Virus record (IMG/VR): IMGVR_UViG_3300014205_000182
Coordinates: 64,001 to 128,000 of that record
Direction: 5' to 3' (one strand)
DNA from: a virus
Taxonomy: Duplodnaviria; Caudoviricetes
Length of the DNA stretch: 64,000 nt
Position 1 is the stretch's first letter. Each line of letters opens with the position of its first letter. Below, piece after piece: positions 27,016 through 45,005 of this stretch. The position numbers were made by a program, and so were the translations under genes. The notes under the pieces are model-generated. The model worked only from the letters and a program-made list of their open reading frames with translations. It had not been told where the DNA came from and did not search any database.

Positions 27016-28923
27016 ATGGCGAATGCAGGCTGGAAACACGGATCGGCATTATCTGCCGATAAGAAGACGTGGCGTTATTTTTCACCATCGACCCTGATGT
27101 CTGGTGACTTAGGCACCACCGAAGGCTGCCTTCGTAAGGTGTATTACGAAAAGGTACTGGAACTAAAGGGACCGGAGCAGAAATGGCTTACGACGGGCAA
27201 GGATCTTCACGCCGAGAACGAAAAGTATCTGCTAACCGGTGATCGTTCGCACATGACTTCCCTGGCACTGTCGGGAATTCACATGCTACCGAAGCCACAG
27301 ACTATCGATCCACGTATCAAGATCGAATGGGAAATCGCTGGCAACCTCGCCACAGCACCACTGCAAGCAGCAGGCGTGCCAATTGCCGGGTTCATCGATT
27401 GCATTCACTGGCAAGGTACGAACGCCGGGACGTCTGACATAACCGACACTATTGATCCTGAAGGCACAGTAGAAGTTATCGACTGGAAGACGACCTCCGA
27501 CGCTAAGTACATCAAGTCTCCTCAGGAAGTAGCGCGCACTCTTCAGATGACGACGTACGGCAAGTGGGCTCTCGTCACACACCAGGCCGAGTGGGTACGG
27601 CTAAGTCACGGGTACTACGTGACCAAGGGTCGTCACACGACTCGTAAAGTTTCACTGCGTGTCCATAAGGATCAGATTGACGAACGTTGGGAGTACGTCG
27701 AAGCCTTGGCTGGTTCTCTGAAGGAGGCCATCAAAGAAGACAACGTAGACAAGGTCCCGGCAAACACCCGGGCTTGCGATGCCTACCGAGGATGTCCTCA
27801 CCGTTCATACTGCTCTGCTGCCGCGCACAATAGCTTATCTTCCCTTTTCTCCTCGGATTTTGCATCAGCCCTACTAGGCTTGGACAAACCAGAAGTACTT
27901 ACCGTAGAAAATACAGGACCAGAAAAAATGTCACTACTAGCCAAACTACAAGCTGCCACCACACCTGCACCGGGACCAAAGCCCGAGGTTGCTCTAGAAA
28001 TGAAGCGACTTGCGCTCGAAGAGATCACTGTGAAGTACCCTGGCATCGGGGACACTATCACGAAGCTTGAGACTTTAGGGCTCGGTCTACCGGTCCTTCT
28101 AGGAGAGGCTGCACGTGTTTACGCTGTCATCAAGGGTAACGCTCCTTACGCAAACGGGGAGCTAGCTGGCTTCGAGTTCGACGACCCGGCACAGCTACCA
28201 GTCGTTCTCGCAGAAGCCGAGGCGATTGTTGCGGAGCGTGTCAAGAACGGTGTACCTGCTCCGGTGGTCGCTACGCCTGTAGCCGTAACCAGCCCGTTCC
28301 CAGAAGATGCTCCTCCTGCACAAGCTTCTCCACCTGTTGAGGAACTTCCGGCACCTCCGATCAACTCTGCTGCTGAGGCGATTGCCGCAGCGGCAAGTGA
28401 TGCTCCGAAGAAGAGAGCAGGCAGGCCGAAGAAGGTTGTTGCTGCCCCTGAGGAAACGACAGCAAACGTAACCGTTGTGGTTAACGGTACTGTTACCCCG
28501 CAGGAAGTCAACAAGGCTATAGAGACTGGGCAGTCAGTAGCCAAGACCATTCTTATTGACTCGGCTGAGCACGTCACTAACGTGGCAGCTGAAAGCTCAG
28601 CAGGAATCAACCTCTTCGTCGACTGCGTTCCCAGCTGCAAGTACGAATCGTTCTGGCCATATGTCGACCGTATCACCAAGGCCATGGCCAAGGAGTATGG
28701 TGGCGTTGACTACCGTGCAGCGGATAACGACAAGCCAACAGCCTTCGGTAAGTACAAAGGGTTTTTGGCACACGGACTTCGTACCCTTGCTCAGGCTGGT
28801 GAGATCCCAGCCGGTAATTACGTACTGGACGGGGCCCGAACAGAGACTGGTGGTGTAGTTGTGGAGGCTATGAGAGATATTGTTGCACAGTCGGGTGGAC
28901 TCTTGGTTCGTGGCATCATGTGA
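27016..28923 (+). CDS. Cas4/RecB-like PD-(D/E)xK exonuclease with long Pro/Ala linker and C-terminal domain
   Basis: SPST...C, GFID, IDWKT, LQM..Y, C....GCP....C. Confidence 0.85.
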   Translation: MANAGWKHGSALSADKKTWRYFSPSTLMSGDLGTTEGCLRKVYYEKVLELKGPEQKWLTTGKDLHAENEKYLLTGDRSHMTSLALSGIHMLPKPQTIDPRIKIEWEIAGNLATAPLQAAGVPIAGFIDCIHWQGTNAGTSDITDTIDPEGTVEVIDWKTTSDAKYIKSPQEVARTLQMTTYGKWALVTHQAEWVRLSHGYYVTKGRHTTRKVSLRVHKDQIDERWEYVEALAGSLKEAIKEDNVDKVPANTRACDAYRGCPHRSYCSAAAHNSLSSLFSSDFASALLGLDKPEVLTVENTGPEKMSLLAKLQAATTPAPGPKPEVALEMKRLALEEITVKYPGIGDTITKLETLGLGLPVLLGEAARVYAVIKGNAPYANGELAGFEFDDPAQLPVVLAEAEAIVAERVKNGVPAPVVATPVAVTSPFPEDAPPAQASPPVEELPAPPINSAAEAIAAAASDAPKKRAGRPKKVVAAPEETTANVTVVVNGTVTPQEVNKAIETGQSVAKTILIDSAEHVTNVAAESSAGINLFVDCVPSCKYESFWPYVDRITKAMAKEYGGVDYRAADNDKPTAFGKYKGFLAHGLRTLAQAGEIPAGNYVLDGARTETGGVVVEAMRDIVAQSGGLLVRGIM

Positions 28924-29438
28924 AGCACGGGACAGGAGGTTATCGTAAAGGGTGTCGTTGTACTTTGTGTAGAGAATCACATTCAACCTACATGAAAAAC
29001 TACAATGACACTAATAAGAAACGAGATAGTAATCGTACATGGATGGCAACAAATAGAGCTGCCTATCCAGAAAAATCCAGACTGTATCAGGCTCAGATGA
29101 ACTCAAAATACGTGGCAAACGGGCAGAAGCGACGTAACCGCTTGTTGACTGATTATGGTTTGACTCAATCTCAAGTTGACCAGATGCTTGCAGCTTGCAA
29201 CTATACTTGTGTGATCTGCAAAGAGCCGTTTAAAGCACTCACTGGTAAATCAGGCCCACACATCGATCACATCCACGGTACCAAAATTGTTAGAGGTTTG
29301 TTACACGGTCGCTGCAATACAGCACTCGGCTCTCTAAGAGACGATCCGGTGGTAATGAGGCGTGCAATCCGATACATCGAAACACAAGGTAAAGAAACAG
29401 AAGATGCAGAACTCGAATTATATGAAGGGACTATATAA
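28920..29438 (+). CDS. endonuclease VII-family (HNH-like) endonuclease
   Basis: CVIC, HIDHIH, VRGLLH.RCN. Confidence 0.85.
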   Translation: MKHGTGGYRKGCRCTLCRESHSTYMKNYNDTNKKRDSNRTWMATNRAAYPEKSRLYQAQMNSKYVANGQKRRNRLLTDYGLTQSQVDQMLAACNYTCVICKEPFKALTGKSGPHIDHIHGTKIVRGLLHGRCNTALGSLRDDPVVMRRAIRYIETQGKETEDAELELYEGTI

Positions 29439-37401: not shown

Positions 37402-37751
37402 AGATCCTATTCCTGGACGACAACGCTGAGCGCCACGCCAAGTTCAAACACAACCGCGTCGGTATGGACATCACGCAAGCGTGGAATTACGCCGAGGCGT
37501 GCCACCACTTGACCCTTGAGGTGTTTGACATCGCTTATCTTGATCACGATCTCGACGAGCTAAGTACTGCCGGCCTACCGACAGAGGAGAAGACTGGTAC
37601 GCACGTGGCCGAGTTTATCGCAGCTATGCCTGAGGAGAAGCGTCCTAAGTACGTGGTTATTCATTCGTGGAACTACGCTGGCGCGCTCAGGATGCTCGGT
37701 ATTCTTAGCTCGGCCGGTGTGGCTTGCATGACGGAGTCTTTTCGTGGATAA
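37398..37751 (+). CDS. stand-alone receiver-like protein (cyclic-phosphate-processing type)
   Basis: LFLDD, LDHDL, TG, IHSWN..GA.RM. Confidence 0.75.
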   Translation: MKILFLDDNAERHAKFKHNRVGMDITQAWNYAEACHHLTLEVFDIAYLDHDLDELSTAGLPTEEKTGTHVAEFIAAMPEEKRPKYVVIHSWNYAGALRMLGILSSAGVACMTESFRG

Positions 37752-38059
37752 ACGACAAGTTAGGATCATCAATAAGCAAGGGGTGCTTATAGGTGTAGGT
37801 AAGTTGCGCTATGTTAACACCGGAGAAGGGCACGGCTATAACTGCATGGTTCAGTGCGAACCTCCTGTAGAATTAACGATCTTTAGTCACCAGTACACCG
37901 AACATTTCTACTTCCTTCTGCCGTCCGGGCATTATCACGTCTGGGGTTGTGGGCATAGCGAACCTGACGACCAAATCCAGATCCACCCTGAAGACTTGCA
38001 CGATATTCTGGTCTGGCATCCACAGGAGTCTTTCAGAGGTTGAACTAGTTTTCTGATTG

Positions 38060-39550
38060 ATGCTACCAGAACGTCTGCAAACCCTACCAACAAACGGCAT
38101 AGCTTTCGACTTAGAAACGTACCTGATCCGTCCGGGGAACTTAGTTCCCCCGCTCGTCCTGGGCTCCGTTGCCTGGTACGATGGAGCTAACATTCAGGGC
38201 GCCCTGCTCGACAAGGAGCAGGCGCTTGAGTTATTTGCTCAGGTCATCGACGACACTACGAAGATCATCGAAGGCGCTAACATCGCTTTCGATCTAGCTG
38301 TTCTCGTTCGCGAGTTCGCCAAGCGAGGGATTGACATTATCCCCTACATCGCCATGGCGCTTATGGGCGAGCATCGCGAACACATGACCGGCATCGACGA
38401 CGGTCGAATCTACGACATTCAACACGCCGAGGCTCTGAACGCCATCGGTCTCGGAATGCTCGGCAAGAACCCGCGAACCGGTGAGCCTCTGAAGGGACGC
38501 TACTCGCAGGATCAGGTTATCAAGCTTAACTTTGACAGAGATGATGCCAAGATTAACGACGAATTCCGTTTGCGATACGGCGAGTTCGACGGTGTACCGC
38601 TCGATCAACTTCCCGAGAAGGCTCGCCAGTACCCAGTAGACGACGTCGTCAACTGTAAGCAAGCAGCACTGGCCCAGACTGGTCACATCCCTAAGATCGG
38701 CCCGTATCACACCTGGGGACCGAAGGGTGCGTGTGTCGACTGTGGCGCCACGGGCATGAGTACGCCGTGCTGGATCACGAAGCCTCACCTGAACCTTCAC
38801 GACCTTGCTAGCCAGACCTCGACGGCATTCTGGTTGCACATGGGCGCAGCTACAGGCTTCAAGATCGACCAGAAGTACGTCGACATCATCGAGAATTATT
38901 CGTCTAAGAACCGCATCGACGGCCTCAAGCCGTACATTGAAGCGGGTCTGATTCGTCCGAATGGTACCGAGGATCGCAGCGAACTTAAGCGCCGCGTTGC
39001 TGTTGCTTTTGGTTCCAAGGATCCGTGCCCTGTCTGCTCCGGCACTGGCAAAGTACCGAGCCCGGCCAACCCTAAGTCCAAGATCATCTGCTTTCAGATG
39101 GCCGAGGACCAGCAGACCAAGCTCAAGACTTGTGACGGCACTGGTCTGATTCTTCACCCTGATGTGCCGCGTTCTGAGAAGGACGGCATCGGTTACGGGC
39201 GTTCGTACCTGATTGATAGTGGTGACGAATTCCTCATGGGTTACGCCGAGGTGATGGAAGACGCCAAGGTTCTGAACGTCTACGTTCCGTTCCTTCGTAC
39301 TGGGCGTTTGTGTGTCTCGTGTGACCATCACGGCACGGACAAGGATCCTCACAAAGAGGGTTGTGCGATGGCCGGCTGGAAAGATATCCCACTGACCCTG
39401 CGCCCAAACCCTATCCTTGATACAGGACGTGTCAGCTACGATGGGGCTGTAATGCTCCTGCCACGCCGCCCCGGTTTTATGGGTAAGTTCTTCGAAGAGA
39501 TTGAAGTGCCAGACGACTACGTCCTTCAGGAAGGTGAAGAATGGGCGTAG
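38060..39550 (+). CDS. family A DNA polymerase, N-terminal fragment (3'-5' exonuclease, thumb)
   Basis: FDLET, NIAFD, YPVDD exonuclease motifs; TGRVS...LPR. Confidence 0.85.
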   Translation: MLPERLQTLPTNGIAFDLETYLIRPGNLVPPLVLGSVAWYDGANIQGALLDKEQALELFAQVIDDTTKIIEGANIAFDLAVLVREFAKRGIDIIPYIAMALMGEHREHMTGIDDGRIYDIQHAEALNAIGLGMLGKNPRTGEPLKGRYSQDQVIKLNFDRDDAKINDEFRLRYGEFDGVPLDQLPEKARQYPVDDVVNCKQAALAQTGHIPKIGPYHTWGPKGACVDCGATGMSTPCWITKPHLNLHDLASQTSTAFWLHMGAATGFKIDQKYVDIIENYSSKNRIDGLKPYIEAGLIRPNGTEDRSELKRRVAVAFGSKDPCPVCSGTGKVPSPANPKSKIICFQMAEDQQTKLKTCDGTGLILHPDVPRSEKDGIGYGRSYLIDSGDEFLMGYAEVMEDAKVLNVYVPFLRTGRLCVSCDHHGTDKDPHKEGCAMAGWKDIPLTLRPNPILDTGRVSYDGAVMLLPRRPGFMGKFFEEIEVPDDYVLQEGEEWA

Positions 39551-39981
39551 ATCACATCGGAAAAACGGAGAAGGGGTGTACCCGTTGCCTGGAAACTAAA
39601 CCGATTGATAGTTTTTACCTGGTCAAACACCAGGCTAACGGAAGATTTTATCGGCAAGCCCAATGTAGGGCCTGTGACGACAGTAGACGCAAACGGGAGA
39701 ACGATTGTAATCGAGAGCGTAACAAGTGGCGTGCGATTCTGAAGAAGTACGGGATTACGAAAGATCAGTGGGAGGACAGGTTCTCACAGCAAGGTTCCAG
39801 ATGTGCAGTATGTCCTGCAATTGAACCTGGATGGGAACGCGGTTGGGTGGTGGATCACGATCACAAAACCGGACGTATACGAGGGTTACTGTGTGTTAAC
39901 TGTAACTTGTTAGTGGGTCACGCCAAAGACAACCCGTCAACGCTGCGGAATGCAGCGAAATACCTGGAGACAACACAATGA
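39541..39981 (+). mobile_element. EndoVII-family homing endonuclease inserted in the polymerase
   Basis: CAVC, VDHDHKTGRIRGLLC..CN; overlaps both polymerase fragments. Confidence 0.85.
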
Positions 39982-41207
39982 AGAAAATCAAGCGATGGAG
40001 CGCACAGTACGTTCCCAGCATGCGCGAATGCTTTCAAGCTCGCGACGGCAAGGGCTATTCGTCCGAGGACTTCAAGGCCGGTGAAACGTTTACGCACGCC
40101 CAGAGTTGTATCTGGTTGCTCGGATACTCTGACCTTGGTGTCGCTCTCCTGAACGACGTCGATCCTCACGGCGCCGTCGCTGCATCCGTTCTTGGTGTGA
40201 GCTACGAAGAATGGTTCAAGCGTCGTAAGGAACCTCTCTTTAAGGCGGCTCGTCAGGGCGCCAAGCCATTTACGTTTGGAAAGCCCACCGGCATGTCGTC
40301 GATCAAGCTTGTCTTGTCTAACCGCGCCCAGGGCCAGGATACGCCAGCCGAGGGAGGACCGTCGTGGATTGACGACGGAACGTATACCGGCAAGAAGATT
40401 CGCGGGTACAAGGGTACGAGATTCTGCATTCTGATGAACGGCTCACCTACCTGTGGTGACATCAAGGTAACCAGCTGGGGTCGTCGCGACAAGATCCCGC
40501 CGACTTGCAAGGCTTGTCTGGAATGTGCCGATCACCTCGGCAAGATTTGGCTCAAGCAGTGGCGTGAGAACCAGCCGTACTACGACATCAACGACGGGAT
40601 CGTCAACGAAGGTATGATGATCACTGAGGAAGCTCTGGAGCGTTGGCCGTGGCTCAAGAAGGTCTATCGCCCTGGCACGAAGACCGAACCTGGCCAGGTG
40701 ATGCAACACTGGTCCGGTCGTTTGCGTGGTGGTATGGACTTCACGACGACGTGCAACGGGTGGTTCCAAGTCCTTCTGGCCGAGATCACCAAGCTTGCAT
40801 ACCGCCTCGTCGCTCGTGAGTGCTACGACTCGACAATCAAGGTGCCAACACAGTTGTTCTACAACTCCAACCGTAGTCGTTACGCTGGTATGCAGAGCCC
40901 ACTGTTCCGGTCTACACCGGTTGCACCATTTCACGACGAGTTGTTTATGGAGCACCCGGCGTCGATGCTGGTTGACGGTGCAATGCGCACCAGTGAAGTA
41001 ATGCGTGATGTTTTTGCGTATGTTTGCCCGGACATGGCTGCGAAGGTTGGTGCCGACCCTACCATCATGGAGCGTTGGTACAAGAACGCCGAGCCGGTCT
41101 ACCGCGACGCGGCGGGTAACAAGTGCGAGCCCGACGCGCCGGGCGCACGGCTTTCGCTGTGGAAGCCGAAATTCGGACCGGGCGCTGAGGTTGTTGGAGT
41201 CCAGTGA
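39978..41207 (+). CDS. family A DNA polymerase, C-terminal fragment (motifs A, B, C)
   Basis: RECF..., SEDFKAGE, RQGAKPFTFG, FHDEL; own GGAG ribosome-binding site. Confidence 0.85.
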   Translation: MKKIKRWSAQYVPSMRECFQARDGKGYSSEDFKAGETFTHAQSCIWLLGYSDLGVALLNDVDPHGAVAASVLGVSYEEWFKRRKEPLFKAARQGAKPFTFGKPTGMSSIKLVLSNRAQGQDTPAEGGPSWIDDGTYTGKKIRGYKGTRFCILMNGSPTCGDIKVTSWGRRDKIPPTCKACLECADHLGKIWLKQWRENQPYYDINDGIVNEGMMITEEALERWPWLKKVYRPGTKTEPGQVMQHWSGRLRGGMDFTTTCNGWFQVLLAEITKLAYRLVARECYDSTIKVPTQLFYNSNRSRYAGMQSPLFRSTPVAPFHDELFMEHPASMLVDGAMRTSEVMRDVFAYVCPDMAAKVGADPTIMERWYKNAEPVYRDAAGNKCEPDAPGARLSLWKPKFGPGAEVVGVQ

Positions 41208-41229
41208 GACCTTCGCTGGTTATCTGGGC

Positions 41230-41841
41230 ATGACGTACGAGAGACCAGATAGCCGTCCTCTGCCAGAGTTTCAGCCTTGGCCTAAGATCCCGAGACTTAA
41301 CCGTGAGGTTACCGTTTCGGAGAAGATCGATGGAACAAACGCTGCGGTCTGGATTTCTGATGACGGTACTCAAATCGGTGCCCAGTCTCGGACGAAGTGG
41401 ATCACTCCCAAGGATGATAACTACGGTTTCGCTCGTTGGGTAGAGGAAAACCGCGACGAGCTTCTAAAGCTCGGACCTGGACATCACTTCGGTGAATGGT
41501 GGGGCTCTGGTATCAACCGCCGCTACGGTCTAACCGAGCGTAGGTTCTGGTTGTTCAACACGCATCGTTGGGGTAATCCGGATACACGTCCTGCGTGTGT
41601 GGGCTGCGTTCCAGTTCTTTGGAACGGTAACTACCAGGACATGGATCTTGCTGCAATCATGGCCAAGCTCACGAGTGAGGGTAGCGTGTCTGCGCCCGGG
41701 TTTATGAAGCCTGAGGGAGTTGTAATCTTCCATCACGCCGCAGATCAGTACTTCAAGGTGCTTGCGGAGGGTGACGAGTTACCTAAGGGGATTACTACGT
41801 TGAAGGAACGCGCAACGCTTGCAAAGCTGGAGGGAAAATGA
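41230..41841 (+). CDS. ATP-dependent RNA ligase (Rnl2-like)
   Basis: KIPRL, EKIDGTNA, GEW.G, EGVV. Confidence 0.8.
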   Translation: MTYERPDSRPLPEFQPWPKIPRLNREVTVSEKIDGTNAAVWISDDGTQIGAQSRTKWITPKDDNYGFARWVEENRDELLKLGPGHHFGEWWGSGINRRYGLTERRFWLFNTHRWGNPDTRPACVGCVPVLWNGNYQDMDLAAIMAKLTSEGSVSAPGFMKPEGVVIFHHAADQYFKVLAEGDELPKGITTLKERATLAKLEGK

Positions 41842-43202: not shown

Positions 43203-43248
43203 GTGCGCCCCTGGACTGAGGGTCGGGGGACGGGGTCCAGGGGCGCAC
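43203..43248 (+). other. 14-bp perfect hairpin with G-rich loop
   Basis: GTGCGCCCCTGGAC/GTCCAGGGGCGCAC; four G-tracts. Confidence 0.7.
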
Positions 43249-43364
43249 ATCCTTTTATGTCCAGCAAGCATTACAACCCTGAAAAACGTGTATGGCGAGG
43301 CCGCTCCTACAAGAACGGCAAGCGTGTTTCTGAACTCAAGTACTCCAACAAAGGTAGTGACACA

Positions 43365-45005
43365 ATGGCAAACATTCTGAATCCAAAGTCTCCGAAGAAG
43401 ATCGACCAAGTCGAAACCCACAAGAACTGGATGGGTGGAACTTCGTTCGACATCAACGATCCAATCATGCGGCTGCGCATCGCAGCTAGCTCGTGCTTCT
43501 TTGGCGAGCCACAGTACTACTCGACGGACCCTGACGACAAGCGCAAGGCGCGTCAGGCATCTATGCCTGCTAACTTCGGGAAGCCGACGACACTGCCGGC
43601 AGCGCAGCTTACCAAGCTTCGTCAGACGCTGACGGCCATCGATCCTCAGGAGTGGCGGTCGATGACGCCGGCTCAGGCGATGGTCTCTGCTATCGACGCA
43701 GCCCTAGACCACGACCCTGAGGCAACGCTCGGCATTGCAGCAGCGCTTCGCCAGGCTGATCACATCCGTACGACGCCCCAGGTTATCCTGGTTCGTGCAG
43801 CACACCACCCCAAGGTTCGTGGTACTGGCATGCTCAAGAAGTATGCTCAGGAGATCATGGCACGTGCAGACGAGCCGGCCGTCGGTCTCGCATACCACAT
43901 CTTTGCCTACGGCAAGGAGAAGCCAATCCCGAACGCCCTGAAGAAGGTGTGGGCACAGCGCCTCGCACGTGCTTCGGAGTACGACCTCGCCAAGTATCGC
44001 CTGGCTGACCACTCGGTCAAGACGGTCGACGTCGTCAACCTCGTTCACGCCAAGTCTCCAGCAATCGGAAAGCTCATGAAGGGTGAACTTACGACCGAGG
44101 GCGAGACGTGGGAGTCCATCATCTCGCAAGGCGGATCTACCAAGGAAAACTGGGAGAAGGCCATCGACAAGATGGGCCACATGGCCCTACTGCGAAACCT
44201 GCGTAACTTCAACGACAAGGGTGTTAACCCGTCGCTGTACACTGGCAAGCTCGTTGGTGGCGCAGCGACCGGTAAGCAGCTTCCGTTCCGCTATTACTCG
44301 GCGTACAAGGCTGTCGCCGGTTCTTCGGCACCGGTGATGGACGCTATCGAGCAGTGTCTGGAGATTTCGCTGGGTAACCTGCCGAAGTTCCCGGGCCGTA
44401 CGATGGCGCTTGCCGACAACTCGGGCTCGGCTCGTGGTGCAACCACGTCCACGATGGGAACGATGCAGGTTTCGACGATTGCTAACTTGACGGCTATCGT
44501 GGCCGGCAAGGTGTCGGACGACGGCTACATCGGTGTCTTCGGTGACACGTTGAACGTCGTGCCGGTGCGCAAGAGGTCGTCGGTGTTCGATCAGTTGAAG
44601 GCTGCCGACGAAGCTGGTGCAGCAGTCGGCGGTTCTACCGAGAACGGTATCTGGCTGTTCTGGGAGAAGGCTATCCGCGAGAAGGAGCATTGGGACAACG
44701 TGTTCGTGATGTCTGATATGCAGGCAGGTCACGGCGGGCTCTATGGTACGCGTGCGTCGATGGCGTCGTACTCTCGTGAGTACGGTTGGCCGGCAGCTAA
44801 CTCGCCGCACATCGACGTCGCCAAGCTCGTCAACACGTATCGCGCCAAGGTCAACCCGAAGGTCAACGTGTTTCTAATCCAGGTCGCCGGTTACCAGGAC
44901 ACCCTGATGCCGGAGTTCTACAACCGTACGTATATCCTCGGCGGATGGGGTGAAGGCGTTCTTCGCTTTGCTGCCGCGATGGCTAATATCGGAGAGGTTA
45001 AGTGA
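43365..45005 (+). CDS. Ro60/Rsr (TROVE + vWA) RNA-binding protein (alternative start 43257)
   Basis: FFGEPQYY, R.DE, MALLRNLRN, LPFRYYSAY, DNSGS MIDAS, SDMQ. Confidence 0.9.
   Translation: MANILNPKSPKKIDQVETHKNWMGGTSFDINDPIMRLRIAASSCFFGEPQYYSTDPDDKRKARQASMPANFGKPTTLPAAQLTKLRQTLTAIDPQEWRSMTPAQAMVSAIDAALDHDPEATLGIAAALRQADHIRTTPQVILVRAAHHPKVRGTGMLKKYAQEIMARADEPAVGLAYHIFAYGKEKPIPNALKKVWAQRLARASEYDLAKYRLADHSVKTVDVVNLVHAKSPAIGKLMKGELTTEGETWESIISQGGSTKENWEKAIDKMGHMALLRNLRNFNDKGVNPSLYTGKLVGGAATGKQLPFRYYSAYKAVAGSSAPVMDAIEQCLEISLGNLPKFPGRTMALADNSGSARGATTSTMGTMQVSTIANLTAIVAGKVSDDGYIGVFGDTLNVVPVRKRSSVFDQLKAADEAGAAVGGSTENGIWLFWEKAIREKEHWDNVFVMSDMQAGHGGLYGTRASMASYSREYGWPAANSPHIDVAKLVNTYRAKVNPKVNVFLIQVAGYQDTLMPEFYNRTYILGGWGEGVLRFAAAMANIGEVK

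Follow-up and report, generated by a model that had tools for sequence, protein, structure and literature searches.

The 64,000-nucleotide (nt) stretch of DNA analysed here (hereafter the window) covers positions 64,001 to 128,000 of the IMG/VR virus record IMGVR_UViG_3300014205_000182 (Duplodnaviria; Caudoviricetes), and carries a DNA polymerase gene that is divided into an N half and a C half by the gene of a predicted free-standing endonuclease. The three open reading frames (ORFs) lie on the same strand, each in a different reading frame, and overlap by 10 nt (ATGGGCGTAG) between the N half and the endonuclease and by 4 nt (ATGA) between the endonuclease and the C half (Table 1). The gene call for the N half begins at the ATG at 38060 (496 amino acids, aa) rather than at the TTG at 38057, and this ATG is probably the true start. 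At the break, the two halves end and begin, respectively, with short extra peptides that we refer to as the tail, which holds eight aspartate or glutamate (D/E) residues, and the head, which is basic. Herein we report that tail and head form a conserved pair that recurs at the break points of other split polymerases, and we lean towards reading the insert as a mobile cassette that would carry its own means of putting the divided enzyme back together.

Table 1 Features of the split polymerase locus (window coordinates).
Feature	Position	Strand	Description
DNA polymerase A, N half	38057..39550	+	ORF; 497 aa from TTG; 3'-5' exonuclease, thumb, and palm to the TGRVS...LLPRRPG motif
Endonuclease	39541..39981	+	ORF, 146 aa; predicted Endo VII-type HNH enzyme with N-terminal CxxC...CxxC zinc finger, free-standing
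DNA polymerase A, C half	39978..41207	+	ORF, 409 aa; palm and fingers; motifs A, B and C
Tail	39479..39547	+	23 extra codons ending the N half (MGKFF...EEWA); no counterpart in unsplit homologs
Conserved core of the tail, EIEVPDDYVLQEGEE	39497-39541	+	within the tail codons
Head	39978..40004	+	9 extra codons (MKKIKRWSA) opening the C half; no counterpart in unsplit homologs
Ribosome-binding site for the C half, GGAG	39966..39969	+	lies within the endonuclease ORF and 8 nt ahead of the C-half ATG; read from the sequence
Ribosome-binding site for the endonuclease, GAAGGTGA	39530..39537	+	made by tail codons Q-E-G-E; read from the sequence

A divergent family-A polymerase made as two polypeptides

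The AlphaFold2 (AF2) model of the N half (predicted local distance difference test, pLDDT, 91) found DpoZ, T7 DNA polymerase and the Klenow fragment as its top Foldseek matches (probability 1.0), and in a VIA structural alignment its residues 10-473 were superposed on residues 313-632 of Bst Pol I (Z ~15, 301 aligned residues, root-mean-square deviation (rmsd) ~5). The C-half model (pLDDT 89) could be aligned to Pol I structures over residues 14-372, the VIA matches being Aquifex Pol1 (Z 19.9, 244 aligned, rmsd 2.4), Taq residues 589-832 (Z 18.7, 228 aligned, rmsd 2.6) and Bst residues 633-876 (Z ~18.5, 229 aligned, rmsd 2.6). On these alignments the break lies between Bst Pol I residues 632 and 633, with residue 473 as the last native residue of the N half and the first native residues of the C half at ~14; it falls after the TGR...LQNIP-type motif and before the strand leading into motif A, and the site is a surface loop of an otherwise intact family-A polymerase gene. 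The C half carries motifs A (SSEDFKAGE), B (RQ..K..FG) and C (HDE), and residues D31, E36, R92, Q93, K96, F100, G101, H319, D320 and E321 vary little or not at all in its alignment (A3), while D17 and E19 of the exonuclease D-x-E motif are nearly invariant in the alignment of the N half (A2). With both the Pol I fold and the catalytic motifs present, the enzyme belongs to family A (Pol I-like); it is made as two polypeptides, and both halves retain all catalytic motifs. The lineage is a divergent one: neither half reaches Pfam DNA_pol_A at E<=0.01, an unsplit homolog (P0047) scores 25 bits against the DNA_pol_A cut-off of 34.3, and the C half matches PHROG 17 ‘DNA polymerase’ (E=6e-8).

Nothing was lost from the gene when it was divided. 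Residues 1-478 of an unsplit homolog of 860 aa (P0046) map to window positions 38060-39493 with 77% identity and residues 479-848 to positions 40002-41114 with 83% identity, with a 508-nt insert between the two matches; the C half as a whole is 80% identical to P0046 residues 478-857. Mapping of P0046 onto the full 143.7-kb phage record revealed no second copy of the polymerase, and no family-B polymerase was found in that record.

The search with the N half gave 120 homologs among the matches listed, and the closest relatives among them, at 71-78% identity, are unsplit proteins 859-868 aa long that lie on contigs of 85-149 kb, the exception being one split enzyme at 82% identity. In the unsplit proteins the junction reads LLPRKPGF, followed by a linker of 6-8 residues and then YIPSLRECF, and it is this linker that is replaced in the window by the 23-aa tail and the 9-aa head. 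The tail is missing from 49 unsplit homologs and the head is likewise missing from unsplit homologs; MW202816 (29-30% identity), which is the sole phage relative in GenBank, is unsplit and without either peptide, and the structural alignment gave no counterpart of the tail in Bst Pol I.

The inserted ORF matches Pfam Endonuclease_7 (PF02945; E=4e-23, 81.7 bits against a cut-off of 23.6) as well as PHROG ‘endonuclease VII’ families, and is 62% identical to the enzyme found at the same site in a related contig (L002). We therefore describe it as a predicted endonuclease VII (Endo VII; beta-beta-alpha-Me) domain in an ORF of its own, inserted in a conserved gene, sporadic among close relatives and with putative homing activity. 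A second Endo VII-like ORF of 172 aa lies elsewhere in the window (28920-29438, + strand); it is 32% identical to the polymerase-splitting enzyme and overlaps by 4 nt the stop of a 635-aa ORF (27016-28923), and neither tail nor head motif was found near it.

The insert leaves little space for a splicing element. A search of positions 37500-41800 against Rfam (E<=10) gave no family near threshold or above noise, and outside the endonuclease ORF the insert comprises only ~85 nt (62 nt and ~23 nt). An in-frame intein is impossible because the three ORFs occupy three frames; in addition, tails begin with M, Y or E and not with Cys, Ser or Thr, and the heads of 6-9 aa are without His-Asn. In relatives that lack the endonuclease, fewer than 110 nt lie between the native segments, the stop of the N half overlaps the start of the C half, and, because only ~30 extra codons in total are kept, a ribozyme or a Hint fold is excluded. 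Judged by its sequence, the insert is neither a group I or group II intron nor an intein or split intein.

These results bear out much of the first-pass annotation of the locus, which had been made from the sequence alone and had described a polA gene split by an endonuclease in three overlapping ORFs, with a tail of eight D/E residues, a basic head and a GGAG site, and with no intron or intein; neither an Rfam signal nor Hint residues came to light. Its view that the ends are extra relative to unsplit homologs was upheld by the alignments, although its boundaries were too generous, since the leading F of its ‘tail’ and the QYVPS of its ‘head’ are native polymerase.

The tail-head pair recurs across sites, lineages and gene families

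Approximately 60 N fragments, 38-82% identical, end in the tail consensus Y-E-x-V-E-V-P-D-D-Y-V-L-Q-P-G-E-E, with the core EVPDDYVLQxGE. Within this polymerase the tail is found at three sites, namely site a, after VPYLRRAR (L019), site b, after LLPRxPG (the window, L002 and L015), and site c, after YIPSLRECxxARGP (L003, L006, L007, L014 and L016). A wider search, which combined a codon-pattern scan of metagenomes with a profile search of 1.84e9 proteins, placed the tail on a more canonical PolA that is fused to uracil-DNA glycosylase (UDG) and split after KLLSTYIG (L011, L013, L022, P0170 and P0183), the C half of which scores 4e-27 against Pfam DNA_pol_A, on small canonical PolAs (P0166, P0167 and P0176), and on N fragments of T7-like single-subunit RNA polymerases (RNAPs), namely P0181 (PF00940, 2e-30), P0185 and L021. 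The T7-like RNAPs (L017, L018 and L021) are split at approximately T7 RNAP residue 564, after ...CSGIQ...AVN. Among the profile matches, 28 of 30 come from N fragments, in which the motif lies at the very C-terminus or no more than ~35 residues from it; P0164 and P0174, which make up the remainder, are matched in numerous repeated stretches and seem spurious, and in none of the matches was the tail seen as an internal loop of an unsplit enzyme. The exact codon-pattern scan for EVPDDYVLQ in IMG/VR had 0 matches, and a looser peptide pattern gave L021 and L022.

The head, M-K/L/R-(K)-I-K/R/L-R and often then P, is present in 13 of the 13 tail-bearing loci with readable downstream DNA. Two tail-less splits of the same polymerase (L005 and L008) are without this head. 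The residues V, P, D, Y, L, G and E of the tail and I and R of the head are invariant, and some heads have no lysine. What lies between the two peptides is far more variable, with tail-to-head gaps from -7 to 590 nt: a zinc-finger Endo VII in the window, L002, L003, L014 and L015 (34-62% identity), a finger-less Endo VII in L011 and L013 (24% identity to the window enzyme), a classical HNH enzyme with a similar zinc finger in L018 and L021, a 240-nt spacer in L006 (3762-4004) with an 80-aa ORF that has no family match and is probably the remnant of a decayed endonuclease, and nothing at all in L007, L016 and L019. Conservation of the tail far exceeds that of the polymerase (38-82% identity) and of the endonuclease (24-62%) that it accompanies.

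The pair comes in two subtypes. Where the third residue after the invariant G-E of the tail is W or F, the head is long (M-x-x-I; the window, L002, L011, L013, L018 and L021), and where it is aliphatic or charged, the head is short (M-x-I; L003, L006, L007, L014, L015, L016 and L019), a pairing that held in 7 of 7 and 10 of 10 contig-matched protein pairs. This could reflect covariation of contacting residues, or simply two cassette lineages.

Three further observations concern individual loci. The endonucleases of the split RNAPs (L017:5039-5197, L018:371-814 and L021:857-1315) have an N-terminal CxxC...CxxC module as in the window enzyme, joined to a classical HNH nuclease domain in at least L018 and L021, which suggests a common DNA-binding module that is shuffled among endonucleases. 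In L005 (3900-4010; contig of P0123 / P0008) the tail-less split lies at site a, where the N half ends in a hyper-acidic run of 29 aa; no endonuclease is present, and the C-half ATG comes directly after an in-frame TAG. Finally, P0183, a UDG-PolA N fragment of 909 aa, carries not only the tail, near its C-terminus, but also a LAGLIDADG_3 domain (residues 427-468); this domain is possibly an intein, which would make two selfish elements in one polymerase gene.

Selection on the tail and mobility of the insert

Over 14 loci, the invariant tail residues are written in the full range of their codons (4/4 codons for Val, 6/6 for Leu, 4/4 for Gly and both for Glu), and synonymous divergence (dS) of the tail is saturated or undefined in 72 of 91 pairs. 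Since the residues are invariant while synonymous sites are saturated, strong purifying selection acts on the tail peptide. The same saturation, together with the lower conservation of the alternative frames of the tail DNA, led us to reject DNA-level causes of the conservation (a promoter, an endonuclease site or an overlapping ORF). The final G-E-E codons do double as the ribosome-binding site (RBS) of the next ORF, and in relatives without an endonuclease these codons (GGAGAGGAA) precede the C-half start, matching the codons that form the endonuclease RBS in the window; the upstream V-E-V-P-D-D-Y-V-L-Q is not explicable in this way.

In a FastTree phylogeny of the N-terminal 430 residues only, with the region of the extra peptides left out, tail-bearing enzymes are mixed in among unsplit ones: the tree requires no fewer than 23 changes of state, and well-supported branches force at least 13 of these. 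The window protein groups with one split sister and six unsplit enzymes in a supported eight-member clade, and the site b and site c types are also interleaved on the tree. The pattern points to a horizontally spreading element and not to an ancient vertical split. We also considered that the peptides arose from the polymerase itself, the type-c head as a duplicated native ‘IRRAF’ strand and the tail as a decayed copy of motif A. This was rejected, as at site a (L019) another native segment follows the same head (MLIRRPIPG) and the tail has no counterpart in Bst Pol I, and a single ancestral duplication behind sites b and c was set aside once sites in other lineages and in RNAP appeared.

Structure models place both peptides at the interface of the halves

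When both halves were modelled together (ESMFold2 with custom alignments), the complex reached an ipSAE (interaction prediction score from aligned errors) of 0.89 (runs 0.88, 0.90 and 0.89), against 0.00 for the best of three controls; among complexes with solved structures, 58 of 80 clear the ipSAE mark applied, as do 2 of 110 mismatched pairs. Between runs, at least 95% of contacts were the same, and partner pLDDT was at least 88. The confident interface comprises, on the N half, residues 467-485, 487, 489-490 and 492-496, which is essentially the whole tail, with contacts alternating along D-Y-V-L-Q such that the conserved Y487 and L489 face the C half; on the C half it comprises residues 1-22, that is, the head and the native YVPSMRECF. 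In the monomer models, the head is disordered (pLDDT <50 over residues 1-17 of the C half), and the core of the tail has a pLDDT of 82-88 after a floppy linker (pLDDT 63). The modelling supports binding of the halves to each other.

The first-pass annotation had further asked whether the ends travel with the endonuclease, and had proposed that these ends, which it called charge-complementary, form a peptide clasp. That the ends travel with the splitting cassette is amply borne out by the other sites, PolA lineages, T7-like RNAPs and endonuclease classes described above, and the multimer model that it called for indeed has both ends in the interface. The clasp has gained a conserved, co-occurring pair with both members in the modelled interface, while the direct contact of the pair and the need for it stay proposals. 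As for charge as the main determinant, the tail is acidic and the window head basic, but the invariant residues also include V, P, Y, L and G in the tail and I in the head, and, as said, lysine is absent from some heads.

A proposed splitting cassette with its own reassembly peptides

The usual view is that a homing endonuclease can persist in an essential gene only within a self-splicing intron or intein, or else has to sit between genes. We consider it somewhat more likely than not that the insert is a mobile splitting cassette carrying its own reassembly tags, which would help the two halves to rejoin without splicing. The block at ~39479-40004 would be this cassette: the coding sequence of the tail, then a free-standing endonuclease gene, then the coding sequence of the head. 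Tail and head would together act as a two-piece, portable interaction module, in which an acidic beta-type tail most likely pairs with a short basic head strand. With its two attachment points adjacent, such a module could be inserted into any permissive surface loop, a topological trick that inteins also use. The tags would raise the affinity or the co-translational assembly of the halves, and better assembly would render the insertion nearly neutral to the host gene, the role that is played by self-splicing for introns and inteins. Near-neutral insertion would in turn let the endonuclease colonise essential genes; the conserved tag junction would then become a good target for other endonucleases, and after decay of the endonuclease the tagged split gene would persist as a stable two-gene polymerase. 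The broader proposal, that we are dealing with a third vehicle for homing endonucleases beside introns and inteins, in which tags of ~20 and ~6 aa re-associate the products non-covalently, serve numerous sites in two or more enzyme families and outlast the endonuclease, is one that we put forward more tentatively and at slightly less than even confidence.

Should the cassette reading be right, the pair offers a concrete and testable answer to how the halves of a gene in pieces find each other, and would explain why metagenomic phages so often have split polymerases, why one junction attracts endonucleases of different classes and why the split outlives the endonuclease. Annotation pipelines will mistake such tagged splits for truncated polymerases or pseudogenes. 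Tags that proved autonomous would moreover be an unusually small natural heterodimerisation pair for split-protein engineering.

Several points weigh against this reading. The tail-less splits in L005 and L008 imply that the tags are not always required, assuming that those enzymes work, and the pair has so far been found only in Pol I-fold polymerases (PolA and T7-like RNAP), which fits a polymerase-specific role too. Halves of a known fold can pass the complex test by likeness to solved structures, and the ~275 contacts between the halves in the model may suffice without the tags. The output for the complex gives interface residues and not tail-head pairs, and the tail, being confident in the N-half monomer, may pack mainly on its own fragment. 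Lastly, of the two options for the subtype pairing, that of two cassette lineages would take the contact covariation away.

Two other explanations are partly compatible with the cassette and are given lesser weight. According to the first, which we regard as fairly unlikely, the peptides are selected for a polymerase-specific job, the tail acting either as an acidic nucleic-acid mimic that regulates the half-enzyme or as a docking peptide for a replisome or transcription partner. The confinement to Pol I-fold hosts agrees with this, an acidic tail with an aromatic residue is reminiscent of the C-terminal docking tails that have been described, and the tail is ordered in the N-half monomer model; however, unsplit relatives manage without the tail, which sits exactly at the break at every site and always with the head on the other fragment.

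The second, unlikely in our judgement, is that the pair serves the endonuclease, with the junction as a landing pad read via codon positions 1 and 2, or serves expression, through termination-reinitiation coupling that would yield equal amounts of the halves. Three endonuclease types do occur at exactly the same junction, the shared zinc-finger module adjoins the tail DNA, stop and start overlap in the forms without an endonuclease, and the G-E-E codons double as an RBS. Yet only the last 3-4 tail codons can serve in that capacity, and a landing pad fails to explain why the peptide is conserved in L007, L016 and L019, which have no endonuclease; either version would in any case be compatible with an assembly role and does not exclude it.

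That the end peptides are neutral fossils, translated flanks hitchhiking with the endonuclease, is already disfavoured and very improbable: any insertion needs a stop and a start, and the last tail codons overlap the endonuclease start, but the invariance at saturated synonymous sites, the conservation of the tail beyond that of polymerase and endonuclease, and its retention after endonuclease loss all speak against it. Least credible, to the point of being barely worth entertaining, is that splicing by an intron, intein or split intein, or else a ribosomal bypass or frameshift, restores a single full-length polymerase: bypass is said to be able to accompany an endonuclease cassette, as in T4 gene 60, but here it would have to span 430 nt, for which no precedent is known, and the missing Rfam signal, the scant space outside the endonuclease, the three frames, the missing Hint residues and the stop/start overlap in endonuclease-less relatives leave splicing little to stand on, even though introns that bear endonucleases are frequent in the polymerase genes of phages (literature cited in PMC10580990).

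Relation to known split genes and their endonucleases

A T4 cassette combining mobA with the 50-nt translational bypass of gene 60 was reportedly described by Bonocora et al. in 2011. Like the insert in the window, it would be an endonuclease cassette with an extra element that lessens the harm to the host gene; that element acts on the ribosome and mRNA within one cistron, whereas here it would consist of two peptides on two proteins.

Free-standing endonucleases are known to split other phage genes, namely nrdA of Aeromonas phage Aeh1 (mobE), T4 genes 39/60 (mobA) and gene 43 of phages 25 and 44RR (PolB; a seg endonuclease or an untranslated spacer) (PMC2988022). As in the window, an endonuclease or leftover spacer divides an essential replication gene in Aeh1 nrdA and in gene 43 of phages 25 and 44RR, and there the products reassemble non-covalently; however, no conserved, transferable end peptides have been described for these, whereas the tail-head pair extends across sites, lineages and gene families. 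How such gene-in-pieces products reassemble is treated as an open question in the same work, which also notes that the endonuclease may have invaded an already split gene (PMC2988022).

A parallel in gene order comes from the fractured genes reported from metagenomes, phage-like replication genes in which a free-standing endonuclease gene lies between the two parts of a split intein (Dassa et al. 2009, PMC2677866). These share with the window the order of N piece plus peptide, endonuclease ORF, and peptide plus C piece, but their appendages are Hint halves with Cys/Ser and His-Asn that ligate the exteins, whereas the peptides here, of ~20 and 6-9 aa, are incapable of forming an intein. Regarding the enzyme, F-CphI is a free-standing phage homing endonuclease of the Endo VII-motif (DHHRN) type (PMC6083498) and has an Endo VII catalytic domain in common with the window enzyme; neither the splitting of a neighbouring gene nor flanking tags have been reported for F-CphI, and the window enzyme adds the zinc finger that it has in common with the HNH enzymes of the split RNAPs.

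An engineered counterpart exists in the splitposon that bisects T7 RNAP with a stop, an RBS and a start, where the addition of heterodimerising SynZIP tags raised activity more than 10-fold at low expression (Segall-Shapiro et al. 2014, PMC4299498). Both this system and the natural split RNAPs found here feature an insertable stop/RBS/start unit and tags at the break; the SynZIP system differs in being man-made, with coiled coils of ~40 aa and no endonuclease, and the natural tags are far shorter and not helical by sequence.

Marine phages with split polymerases are on record, with no explanation offered (PMC10580990), and our literature search on split DNA or RNA polymerases returned descriptive mentions only. 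No description of a conserved tail-head pair was found, which is weak evidence as many subscription papers lay outside the search, and the tail motif itself retrieved only a mistyped hemagglutinin (HA) tag. What appears to be new here is the conserved, co-occurring and portable tail-head pair at polymerase splits.

Neighbouring genes

An ORF of the RNA ligase family (PF09414, window 41005-41841) comes right after the polymerase, an arrangement also seen in the related contig with the same split site (L002), and a TROVE/Ro60-like ORF lies further on (window 43203-45005).

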